IMG/VR virus record: IMGVR_UViG_3300043416_000076 | Span: 915-64,914 of that record | DNA: 64,000 nucleotides | Reading direction: 5' to 3' (one strand) | Source: a virus | Taxonomy: Duplodnaviria > Caudoviricetes | Part shown: positions 49,086 to 51,200 of the stretch, one piece after another | Position numbering within the stretch: position 1 is the stretch's first letter | How the letters are laid out: each line of letters opens with the position of its first letter | The notes under the pieces: generated by a model | Told to the model about the DNA's origin: nothing | What the model saw: only the letters and a program-made list of their open reading frames with translations | The model's database searches: none | Translations under genes and position numbers: made by a program

Positions 49086-49997
49086 ATGGCTATTTCACGT
49101 GCACAACTACTGAAGGAACTTCTTCCCGGACTGAACGCTTTGTTCGGTATGGAATACGCTCGCTACGGTGAGCAACACAAAGAGATCTACGAAACAGAGA
49201 CCTCTGAGCGTTCCTTTGAAGAAGAAACCAAGCTGTCTGGCTTCTCTGCCGCACCTGTCAAAAACGAGGGTTCTGCCATCGCTTATGACAATGCTCAAGA
49301 GGCATGGACTACCCGCTACAACCACGAAACCATTGCTTTGGGTTTCTCAATCACTGAAGAAGCGATTGAAGATAACTTGTACGACAGCTTGTCTGCTCGC
49401 TACACCAAAGGTCTGGCTCGTGCTATGGCGTATACCAAGCAGGTTAAAGCAGCCGCTACTCTCAACAACGGTTTCTCCGCCGCTTATGTCGGTGGTGATG
49501 GTGTTGCTTTGTTTAGCACTGCTCACCCCTTGGTTAATGGTGGAACCAACTCCAACCGTCCTTCCACTGCTGCTGACTTGAATGAAACTTCGTTGGAAAA
49601 CGCTGTTATTCAGATCGCTGCATGGACAGACGAGCGTGGTTTGTTGATCGCCGCCAAGCCCAAGAAGCTGATTGTTCCCCCTGCATTGCAGTTCGTGGCT
49701 ACCCGCCTGTTGGAAACCAGCCTGCGTGTTGGCACTACCGACAACGACATCAATGCTCTGAAGAACAACGGTTCTATCCCTGAAGGCTACACCATTAACA
49801 ACTACTTGACCGACACAAACGGCTGGTATTTGACAACTGATGTGCCTAACGGTCTGAAGCACTTCGTTCGTTCACCCCTTGCTAACAGCATGGATGGTGA
49901 CTTTGATACCGGCAACGTCCGTTACAAAGCCCGCGAGCGTTACAGCTTCGGTTGGTCTGATCCGTTGGGAATGTTTGGTTCTCCCGGTACGTCCTAA
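49086..49997 (+). CDS. Major capsid protein
   Basis: MAISRAQLLKELLPGLNALFG...; optimised codons; strong RBS; followed by a terminator. Confidence 0.88.
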   Translation: MAISRAQLLKELLPGLNALFGMEYARYGEQHKEIYETETSERSFEEETKLSGFSAAPVKNEGSAIAYDNAQEAWTTRYNHETIALGFSITEEAIEDNLYDSLSARYTKGLARAMAYTKQVKAAATLNNGFSAAYVGGDGVALFSTAHPLVNGGTNSNRPSTAADLNETSLENAVIQIAAWTDERGLLIAAKPKKLIVPPALQFVATRLLETSLRVGTTDNDINALKNNGSIPEGYTINNYLTDTNGWYLTTDVPNGLKHFVRSPLANSMDGDFDTGNVRYKARERYSFGWSDPLGMFGSPGTS

Positions 49998-50007
49998 GAA
50001 GACTGAG

Positions 50008-50035
50008 AAGGGGGCCTTGTGCCCCCTTTTCTTTT
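50008..50035 (+). terminator. Intrinsic terminator after the capsid gene; its loop also reads as a -35 (TTGTGC-17 bp-TATATT at 50017-50045)
   Basis: AAGGGGGC-CTTGT-GCCCCCTT followed by TTCTTTT. Confidence 0.8.
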
Positions 50036-50054
50036 GATGTATATTGAACGCATT

Positions 50055-50125
50055 CCGGGAAACCCGGCGTATCAAACAGTCCCGGCTGACTGACATGCAA
50101 GATTGATACGCTATAACGCATGGAG
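50055..50125 (+). ncRNA. Putative multi-pseudoknot leader RNA
   Basis: Four complementary segment pairs (6, 9, 5 and 5 bp) within 70 nt; the last pair overlaps the RBS. Confidence 0.6.
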
Positions 50126-50133
50126 ATATTCTT

Positions 50134-50631
50134 ATGGGATTCGCAACTCACCTTGGCCCTTGGTTGTTGGGTACAGTTAAAAACACAACTGGCACTACCG
50201 CAGGCACTATCCGCAATATGGGCGCGACTATTGTTGCCCAGACTTACACGGCCCCCGCTTCTGTTATTTTGGCAAGCCCCGCAGCACAACAGATGTTTGT
50301 ACTCCCTGCTGGCGCTAAGATTGTTCGTTTTGGCCTCGAAGTTAATGTTGCCCTGACTGGCGCGTCTAACTGCGGCGTTACCATCGGTAGCAGCGGCACT
50401 GCCAACTTGTACATGGCTACGGTCAACACCGGCACTTCAGCGGTTCAGACTTCTCCAGCTACGATTGCAGCGGCTACTTCAGGTCTGTATGACAGCATTG
50501 GCACAACTGATGCAATCATTTACGGTACTTTTACCGCAGCTACTGCTGACGCTACTGCTGGTACGGTTACTGTCACTGTTGAGTACATTGTTCGTGACTC
50601 TGACGGTTCTGCCAATCCTTCACAGGCTTAA
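50134..50631 (+). CDS. Virion structural protein
   Basis: T/A/G-rich beta protein; RBS GGAG. Confidence 0.7.
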   Translation: MGFATHLGPWLLGTVKNTTGTTAGTIRNMGATIVAQTYTAPASVILASPAAQQMFVLPAGAKIVRFGLEVNVALTGASNCGVTIGSSGTANLYMATVNTGTSAVQTSPATIAAATSGLYDSIGTTDAIIYGTFTAATADATAGTVTVTVEYIVRDSDGSANPSQA

Positions 50632-50639
50632 TTGATCTT

Positions 50640-50659
50640 GGGGGCTTCGGCCCCCGTTT
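50640..50659 (+). terminator. UUCG hairpin (weak terminator or stabiliser)
   Basis: GGGGGC-TTCG-GCCCCC followed by only GTTT. Confidence 0.5.
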
Positions 50660-50668
50660 AAAAGGAGA

Positions 50669-50953
50669 TTGATTATGATGCAGACAGATGTAAAAAGCGG
50701 CGCGGCAGCAGCTAATGCAACCACCACCATTTTTGCTGGCCCAGCCCGTATTAAAGGTATATCCATCAGTTATTCAACAGGCGCAACGGTTGTTCTGAAT
50801 GATGGCACAGCCGGTACAGCTATGTTTTCTTTTACCGCGCCAGCGGCTGCGGGGGCTATCTATATGGTATTCCCCGGAGAGGGAATTAGATGTAGCACCA
50901 ATATTTCTGCTGTGGTATCTGCGACAACAACCGCAGTGGTGTTCTATGGCTAA
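50669..50953 (+). CDS. Small virion structural protein
   Basis: GPARIKG...PGEGIRC; RBS AGGAG. Confidence 0.7.
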   Translation: MIMMQTDVKSGAAAANATTTIFAGPARIKGISISYSTGATVVLNDGTAGTAMFSFTAPAAAGAIYMVFPGEGIRCSTNISAVVSATTTAVVFYG

Positions 50954-51200
50954 GAAGACTCCCTCCCTTGCAATTGGTCGTGGTGAAAAACTACCCGCTT
51001 CCAAGGGGGCGGGCTTGACTGCCAAAGGTCGTGCCAAGTACAACGCAGCAACAGGAAGCAACTTGAAGGCTCCACAGCCACAGGGTGGCAAGCGCAAGGA
51101 TTCGTTCTGCGCCCGTATGTCTGGTATGCCCGGCCCGATGAAAGATGAAAAAGGCAAGCCTACCCGCAAGGCAGCTTCTTTAGCAAGATGGAAGTGTTGA
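50946..51200 (+). CDS. Small basic protein (SFCARM family)
   Basis: ATG 50946; GLTAKGR..YN...GSNLK, SFCARM, LARWKC. Confidence 0.7.
   Translation: MAKKTPSLAIGRGEKLPASKGAGLTAKGRAKYNAATGSNLKAPQPQGGKRKDSFCARMSGMPGPMKDEKGKPTRKAASLARWKC

Follow-up and report, generated by a model that had tools for sequence, protein, structure and literature searches.

A covarying double-pseudoknot RNA leader in front of a predicted capsid cement gene of freshwater and marine phages

The capsid locus and its predicted cement gene

The window, that is, the whole 64-kb stretch of DNA analyzed here (64,000 nt), represents an almost complete 64.9-kb phage genome with terminal repeats. On its + strand, the gene for the major capsid protein, which is 64–67% identical at the nucleotide level to those of Pelagibacter phages HTVC023P and HTVC027P, among others, is followed by an intrinsic terminator, an interval containing the leader described below, and a gene of 165 codons. 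The features of this region, in the order in which they occur, are the following:

49086–49997, + strand: gene for the HK97-like major capsid protein, 303 aa (Pfam Phage_capsid_4; PHROG major head protein)
50005–50035, + strand: strong intrinsic terminator 3' of the capsid gene, an 11-bp G+C stem followed by a T-run
50017–50045, + strand: sigma70-type promoter, with the −35 element at 50017–50022 (in the terminator loop/arm), a 17-nt spacer and the −10 element at 50040–50045
50052, + strand: predicted transcription start, an A lying 7 nt past the −10 element and 3 nt before helix A
50055–50059, + strand: helix A, the 5' strand of pseudoknot PK1 (partner 50081–50085; pairing replicated in a second collection)
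50063–50067, + strand: facultative strand A2, which competes for helix A by local hairpin formation in only ~60% of relatives
50067–50075, + strand: 5' strand of stem P2 (partner 50103–50111)
50076, + strand: near-invariant unpaired A 5' of P3 (A in 70/72 relatives)
50077–50088, + strand: hairpin P3, with a 3-bp stem (50077–50079 with 50086–50088) and a 6-nt loop that holds the PK1 3' strand (50081–50085)
50089–50090, + strand: near-invariant unpaired AC 3' of P3 (69/72 each)
50094–50098, + strand: helix B, the 5' strand of pseudoknot PK2 (partner 50118–50122)
50101–50102, + strand: near-invariant unpaired GA 5' of the P2 3' strand (G in 65/72, A in 68/72)
50103–50111, + strand: 3' strand of P2, covarying with 50067–50075
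50118–50122, + strand: helix B', the PK2 3' strand, which abuts or overlaps the Shine-Dalgarno sequence
50122–50125, + strand: Shine-Dalgarno core for the cement protein, sharing 1 nt with PK2 and lying 8 nt upstream of the start codon (ATG, 50134)
50134–50631, + strand: predicted gene for a capsid cement (decoration) protein, 165 aa (AF2 model, Foldseek, synteny)
50640–50655, + strand: G+C hairpin with weak U tract, just 3' of the cement stop codon (sequence and fold; not called by the terminator scan)

The 165-aa protein matched no Pfam or PHROG family, and more than 3000 homologues of it were found in metagenomes. Its AlphaFold (AF2) model (pLDDT 82.6) has a jelly-roll fold, for which the best Foldseek matches in the PDB were a chain of the capsid asymmetric unit of cyanophage Pam1 and the trimeric cement proteins of Helicobacter phages KHP40 and KHP30 (E-values of 6e-5 for 7eel_H, 4e-4 for 7dou and 5e-4 for 7dn2). 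The syntenic gene is annotated as 'cement protein' in the lake phage DSL-LC04 and as 'minor capsid protein' in phage Pag-Yong1. Both features by which we recognize a cement protein, namely, a jelly roll like those of solved cement proteins and a gene adjoining that of the major capsid protein, were thus found, and the structural model, together with synteny and annotation, identifies the 165-aa product as a predicted jelly-roll capsid cement protein. By analogy with cement-decorated capsids of this type, such a protein is probably needed at about the same copy number as the capsid protein. Farther downstream (50799–51200), a 133-aa open reading frame ends in a DUF6321 domain (Pfam E = 2e-22), a domain also located at the C-terminal end of PHROG families that are much longer.

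The cement genes located behind the leader vary greatly. Across 150 loci, they encode proteins of 57–248 aa with several unrelated bodies that have in common an N-terminal arm of ~10 residues. For instance, in locus L001, the capsid protein is 99% identical to that of the window and the leader region 94% identical, compared with 45% for the cement protein. The conserved stretch consists of the leader and the first ~20 codons, and the remainder of the cement gene is replaced, such that the gene acts as a swappable cassette (window positions 50134–50631; loci L001–L160). Given that a common RNA core precedes all the cement bodies, a trans-acting partner of this RNA, if there is one, is probably common to these phages rather than residing in the variable part.

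Covariation and distribution of the leader fold

An earlier note on this DNA, made from the sequence alone, described four complementary segment pairs in the capsid-to-cement interval, and all four are present. The fold of this single sequence proves nothing, because it is no better than that of shuffled controls: for the 95-nt element alone, z = −1.2, with 27 of 200 shuffles being equally good (not significant), whereas a longer fold (z = −2.8) owes its significance to the terminator. The case for a structured RNA therefore rests on comparison with relatives. A search of IMG/VR with the capsid protein yielded 80 loci, with capsid proteins 87–99% identical, and a covariance model was built from 23 loci using only the nested helices P2 and P3. 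Because PK1 and PK2 were left out of the model, the pair counts reported for them are not fitted to it.

In the resulting alignment of 72 relatives found via the capsid gene (A2), 93.8% of the cells of the four-helix structure were paired, compared with 20–41% when the 3' partners were slid by 1–3 columns. Changes on both sides were detected in 19 of the 22 pairs, with 400 compensatory cells in total, and the covariation score was reached by none of 500 shuffles. All four helices contribute to this signal. PK1 (50055–50059 with 50081–50085) was paired in 98.6% of the cells, with compensatory changes in three of its five pairs (pair make-up CG/UA 45/26, GC/AU/UA 57/10/3 and GC/AU 64/8); P2 was 94.5% paired, with compensatory changes in all nine pairs; and PK2 was 84.1% paired, with double-sided changes in all five. 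P3 was paired throughout (100%); its closing pair is C-G without exception, and the middle pair, with 33 double changes, is UA in 39 of the 72 relatives, AU in 24, CG in 7 and GC in 2. RNAalifold independently recovered P2 and P3. In a second collection, 27 contigs from the GTDB genome collection, 89.6% of the cells were paired and 21 of 23 pairs showed compensatory changes. In addition, G-U pairs are frequent when the alignment is read on the + strand, which fits an RNA transcribed from that strand.

These comparisons uphold three of the four helices named in the earlier note and, with them, its central proposal of two pseudoknots crossing a 9-bp stem: PK1, P2 and PK2 covary strongly both in the 72 relatives and in the second collection. 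The fourth helix did not survive in the form in which it was drawn. A 5-bp inner helix (50077–50081 with 50088–50092) had been proposed, for the outermost pair of which only 3 of the 72 relatives have letters in the alignment and the score of which was matched by 17 of 500 shuffles; it was dropped in favor of the conserved 3-bp version, P3. Similarly, a sixth PK1 pair (50060 with 50080) is present in the window and is not kept among the relatives. The local hairpin that had been suggested to compete with PK1 (50055–50059 with 50063–50067) exists and covaries, but characterizes a subclass only, with 73.8% of cells paired overall; it is absent from several other sequence classes among the relatives. 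This hairpin has the appearance of either a switch or an intermediate in folding. A naturally occurring form of the leader (L213:3943-4024) has P2, PK2 and a short P3 with a 4-nt loop, without the partner strands of PK1.

The strands of the leader follow each other in the order A, P2, P3, A' (in the P3 loop), P3', B, P2', B'. The 9-bp P2 encloses the 3-bp P3, the loop of which pairs with the first nucleotides of the transcript to form PK1, and the strand between P3 and the 3' arm of P2 pairs with the stretch just 5' of the Shine-Dalgarno sequence to form PK2. Within the P3 loop, one linker nucleotide lies on the 5' side of the PK1 strand and none on the 3' side; with such linkers, known pseudoknot geometry suggests that stacking of PK1 onto P3 is feasible, in the manner of a permuted H-type pseudoknot. 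Five unpaired junction positions (50076, 50089–50090 and 50101–50102) are near-invariant, being conserved in 65–70 of the 72 relatives.

Could the conservation instead reflect a feature of the DNA, such as a recombination junction for cement cassettes or an operator for a DNA-binding regulator? Retention of the leader and the first ~20 codons next to a replaced gene body, as in L001, would be in line with such a role. However, compensatory double changes affect 19 of the 22 pairs, including those of the crossing helices, G-U pairs are tolerated on one strand only, and the primary sequence drifts while the pairing is kept, which neither a recombination arm nor a protein-binding DNA site would predict. 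The compensatory changes essentially exclude a purely DNA-level explanation, to which we assign a very low probability, and we regard the existence of a selected, cis-acting RNA fold as nearly certain.

The model matches occur once per locus, on the + strand, and end at the ATG of the following gene; a single copy is present in the 64-kb window. Matches were found in 72 of 81 sources of the capsid-search set, in all 78 of a set retrieved by sequence pattern, and in 27 of 39 from the GTDB collection. The 22-nt core pattern matched at least 120 IMG/VR contigs, and the 78 new loci obtained in this way all contain a full model match, with capsid proteins down to 40–65% identity to that of the window. 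Thus, the motif, present in hundreds of phages from freshwater and the sea, is abundant among phages with widely diverged capsids. Its carriers include cultured phages of SAR11: in Pelagibacter phage HTVC023P, it precedes gp41 (46.7 bits, E = 4e-8), and in HTVC027P, a divergent copy with both pseudoknots still visible precedes gp62. Phage DSL-LC04, also an isolate, carries it before the cement gene (22.9 bits). Podophages of the HTVC023P type have been reported as the most abundant group of pelagiphages (PMC12753301). Owing to its presence in cultured SAR11 phages, the leader can be tested experimentally.

The motif was not found in Pag-Yong1 or in Roseobacter phage CRP-901, each of which has a structured gap in front of a cement-like gene. 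These gaps (L082:4904-5007 and L254:2732-2871, respectively) contain other G+C-rich complementary segments and are possibly unrelated leaders with an equivalent job. Three GenBank records of 65,014 bp each (OQ594354, OL906435 and PP438419), named for Synechococcus phage MinM2 and Planktothrix phages Pag-Yong1 and Pra-JY27, gave identical match statistics under different cyanobacterial host names, as would three differently permuted deposits of a single genome. Contigs of the phage group, many of ~50–63 kb, have also been binned into metagenome-assembled genomes (MAGs) of more than 10 phyla (loci L201–L251), including Nanopelagicales, Methylopumilus, Bacteroidota, Saccharimonadales and Chloroflexota. 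Host inference from these bins was rejected, since such a spread probably reflects mis-binned phage DNA, which makes the host labels unreliable and leaves no host signal.

Promoter, ribosome-binding site and possible functions

The earlier note also assigned the leader a promoter of its own. In the window, this promoter has 8 of 12 consensus matches, below the threshold of a consensus scan, but its position is conserved among the 72 relatives. Sigma70-type −35 and −10 elements with a spacing of 16–18 nt at a conserved position were found across these relatives: a −10 hexamer with at least four of six matches is present in 71 of the 72 (five of six in 58), and the −10 ends 8–9 nt before helix A in 53. 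A perfect −35 consensus occurs in 14 of the 72 relatives examined, where the terminator does not overlap the promoter. An extended −10 was considered and discarded, the TG being correctly placed in only 15 of the 72 relatives and missing from the window. Adenines are enriched 3 and 2 nt before helix A (in 42 and 40 of the 72 relatives, respectively). Together with the conserved spacing between promoter and helix A, this enrichment places the predicted start of the transcript 0–3 nt before PK1.

The spacing is independent of the upstream neighbor, be it the capsid terminator or an inserted gene. In about one-quarter of the relatives, an extra segment of 400–1240 nt with a gene separates the capsid gene from the promoter and leader, which indicates that the element belongs to the cement gene. 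Hence, its proposed placement behind the capsid terminator is true of the window, whereas the association that persists is with the cement gene and not with the terminator. In loci with the inserted segment, such as L020, L066, L108 and L109, the cement promoter has a perfect −35, and in one locus, the segment contains a match to the abiF RNA motif (RF03085; L032:1798-1835; 45.5 bits against a gathering score of 37). At the other end of the cement gene, the G+C hairpin at 50640–50655 is probably the 3' end or an attenuator of the unit, and its location after the stop makes the cement gene look self-contained. From these sequence features, positions 50052–50133 are predicted to be the complete 5' untranslated leader of a short separate unit composed of promoter, leader, cement gene and 3' hairpin. 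The claim of a multi-pseudoknot leader with its own promoter, acting in cis on the next virion gene apart from the capsid transcript, is thus borne out.

Contigs from freshwater metatranscriptomes cover the region, and their summed depth dips over 50001–50077, although contigs of this kind can neither show transcription starts nor rank genes; a strain indel lies where RNA contigs end near 50100. One contig from an RNA library (record 13) spans the terminator and the leader, so that read-through RNA may exist. The knot might act as a nuclease block, that is, an exoribonuclease-resistant fold that stops 5'-to-3' decay at its edge, or as a self-cleaving RNA that frees read-through capsid transcripts; a double pseudoknot around a junction with the 5' end paired in recalls the logic of flavivirus xrRNAs (PMC12397905). 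Yet the helix order is unlike that of flavivirus xrRNAs or of HDV-like, twister and pistol ribozymes, no Rfam ribozyme model matched, and a conserved promoter predicted to fire at the 5' edge of the knot makes cleavage unnecessary. The MAG bins holding these contigs span many phyla and point to no single host with its set of RNases. We consider nuclease resistance or processing improbable.

The best complement between the region of helix B and the tract before the ATG is 6–8 bp long in 67 of 71 relatives, and the 3' end of PK2 falls within −1 to +5 nt of the start of the Shine-Dalgarno core in 64 of 69 scorable relatives. The core itself is fully paired in 13 of these 69, overlaps PK2 by 1–2 nt in 7 and abuts it in ~44; in the window, only its first G lies inside PK2. 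The helix had been described as sequestering the ribosome-binding site: it does overlap the core, but by a single nucleotide here, and full pairing is found in about one-fifth of the family. That the contact is so constant argues for a coupling of PK2 to ribosome binding; the variation in overlap speaks against simple sequestration being the mechanism shared throughout the family.

A sensor would account for several of these observations. In such a scheme, a small molecule (riboswitch) or a conserved protein such as the capsid protein, a host factor or the ribosome (operator) would stabilize or melt PK2 and thereby switch cement translation on or off, matching decoration to capsid assembly. 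The near-invariant unpaired nucleotides at the P2/P3/PK2 junction could be read in this way, as could the meeting of PK2 with the Shine-Dalgarno region, covered in full in the 13 relatives mentioned above, the covarying alternative hairpin that rivals the pairing of helix A in ~60% of members, and a topology that is that of H-type pseudoknot translational riboswitches. Conversely, no riboswitch model matched, a structural gene, such as the one regulated here, offers no hint from metabolism as to a ligand, and most members leave the Shine-Dalgarno sequence unpaired; autoregulation by the body of the downstream protein is unlikely, given that these proteins are unrelated past the short N-terminal arm. 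Sensing of a ligand or protein is, in our estimate, a somewhat doubtful explanation, and on/off switching in step with capsid assembly is held with the same reserve. If the leader is a sensor, it would tie virion decoration to a cellular or assembly signal.

We tentatively favor, with a little less than even confidence, a cis-acting leader that sets cement output through burial of the 5' end, and hence message stability, combined with presentation or gating of the Shine-Dalgarno sequence. PK1 would protect the transcript from decay that depends on its 5' end (RppH, RNase E or RNase J) by concealing that end; the short, constrained distance from the promoter to helix A supports this role. PK2 would govern the way in which the ribosome site is displayed, occluding it partly or wholly in some members and stacking end-on in others, such that the two pseudoknots together would set the output of cement protein independently of the terminated capsid message, with the 3' hairpin closing the unit. 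This combination of stability and translational effects, for which our confidence likewise stays just below even, is favored by the covariation of the fold, the single + strand copy located at the ATG, the promoter spacing, the PK2 contact and the 3' hairpin. Several observations run counter to it: the Shine-Dalgarno overlap is variable, with no single gating mechanism evident from the sequences, the competitor hairpin exists, the L213 variant lacks PK1, and gp61 of HTVC027P has a high transcript level. As a stabilizer or enhancer, the leader would represent a compact, portable expression module.

Published RNA-seq data for HTVC027P bear on the combined model. At 15 h, the capsid gene reached ~75k TPM, compared with 12k for gp60, 28.6k for gp62 and 9.4k for gp63, and at 9 h, gp62 (~12.8k) exceeded the capsid gene (~10.4k) (PMC12753301, Table S3). 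The leader-bearing gp62 was thus 2–3 times as abundant as its neighbors gp60 and gp63 at 15 h (calculated from PMC12753301), which fits a separate promoter, a stabilized message, or both. The tiny gp61, located upstream of the predicted promoter, also had a high TPM (PMC12753301).

Comparison with catalogued RNAs and known systems

A scan of the window with the 4227 models of Rfam 15 at E <= 10 gave only weak matches, which fall on the terminator, and none on the element; nor did a scan of 20 diverse loci at gathering thresholds place anything on it. Polynucleobacter-1 (RF01718; a 141-position model with a 37-bit threshold), which the earlier note had singled out for such an Infernal comparison, showed no match at E <= 10 across the phage genome. 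Literature searches found no description of a leader of a cement or decoration gene or of RNA-level regulation of a capsid cement gene. IMG/VR has previously been mined for covarying intergenic motifs, including those within 25 nt of start codons, and the cement leader may be among the 8,495 candidates of that study, although a search of its main text found no leader of this type of gene mentioned (Fremin et al. 2023; PMC10690425). Leaders with two covarying pseudoknots are rare, and most of those that have been studied are riboswitches, ribozymes, or RNAs that engage the ribosome or nucleases. The possibility that the cement leader founds a new class of sensing or machinery-engaging RNA, be it a riboswitch or protein operator by which cement synthesis is timed to capsid maturation or the first exoribonuclease-resistant fold from a phage or bacterium, appears to us rather unlikely.

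The leader has two of the generic hallmarks of a riboswitch, namely, a conserved, covarying fold in a 5' leader and near-invariant unpaired nucleotides that could line a pocket. As in preQ1-II, SAM-II, SAM-V and guanidine-III, the leader is short, its 5' strand pairs across a second helix, and its last strand reaches the Shine-Dalgarno sequence. SAM-V occurs in Pelagibacter, which is also the host of two phages carrying the cement-leader motif. Unlike these H-type riboswitches, however, the cement leader contains a second pseudoknot and an embedded 3-bp hairpin, has no match to their covariance models, precedes a virion-protein gene, and leaves the Shine-Dalgarno sequence mostly adjacent to, rather than paired within, the knot.

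The leaders of T4 gene 32, Escherichia coli rpsO (S15) and the alpha operon (S4) likewise place a pseudoknot directly in front of the ribosome-binding site, in each case that of a gene with high expression. The rpsO knot sits on the platform of the 30S subunit and traps initiation. The cement leader differs from all three in that it shows no sequence or model similarity to them and that the protein encoded downstream is hypervariable, which makes classical autoregulation unlikely.

With flavivirus xrRNAs of classes 1 and 2, the leader shares a three-way-junction-like core tied together by a pair of pseudoknots, with the 5' end engaged in one of them (PMC12397905). The partners are swapped, though: in the cement leader, the partner of the 5' end is a hairpin loop, and that of the junction strand is the 3' tail. 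To our knowledge, xrRNAs occur only in viruses of eukaryotes. Small self-cleaving ribozymes offer no closer parallel, as the Rfam models for the HDV-like, twister, pistol, hammerhead and hatchet families found no match on the element, and we know of no fold among these that its helix order would fit. Thus, the cement leader, judged by its predicted architecture, is not a member of the H-type riboswitches, nor does it belong with rpsO, T4 gene 32 or the flavivirus xrRNAs.

The ompA and T7 gene 10 leaders are 5'-terminal stabilizers of abundant, separately transcribed messages. In these leaders, as in the cement leader to the extent that promoter spacing locates its 5' end, the structure begins a few nucleotides from the start of the transcript. 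By comparison with the double pseudoknot, they are simple hairpins, devoid of conserved tertiary pairings and invariant junction nucleotides. Given that a plain 5' hairpin is enough for stabilization, the double pseudoknot and the five near-invariant nucleotides of the cement leader point to a more specific partner.
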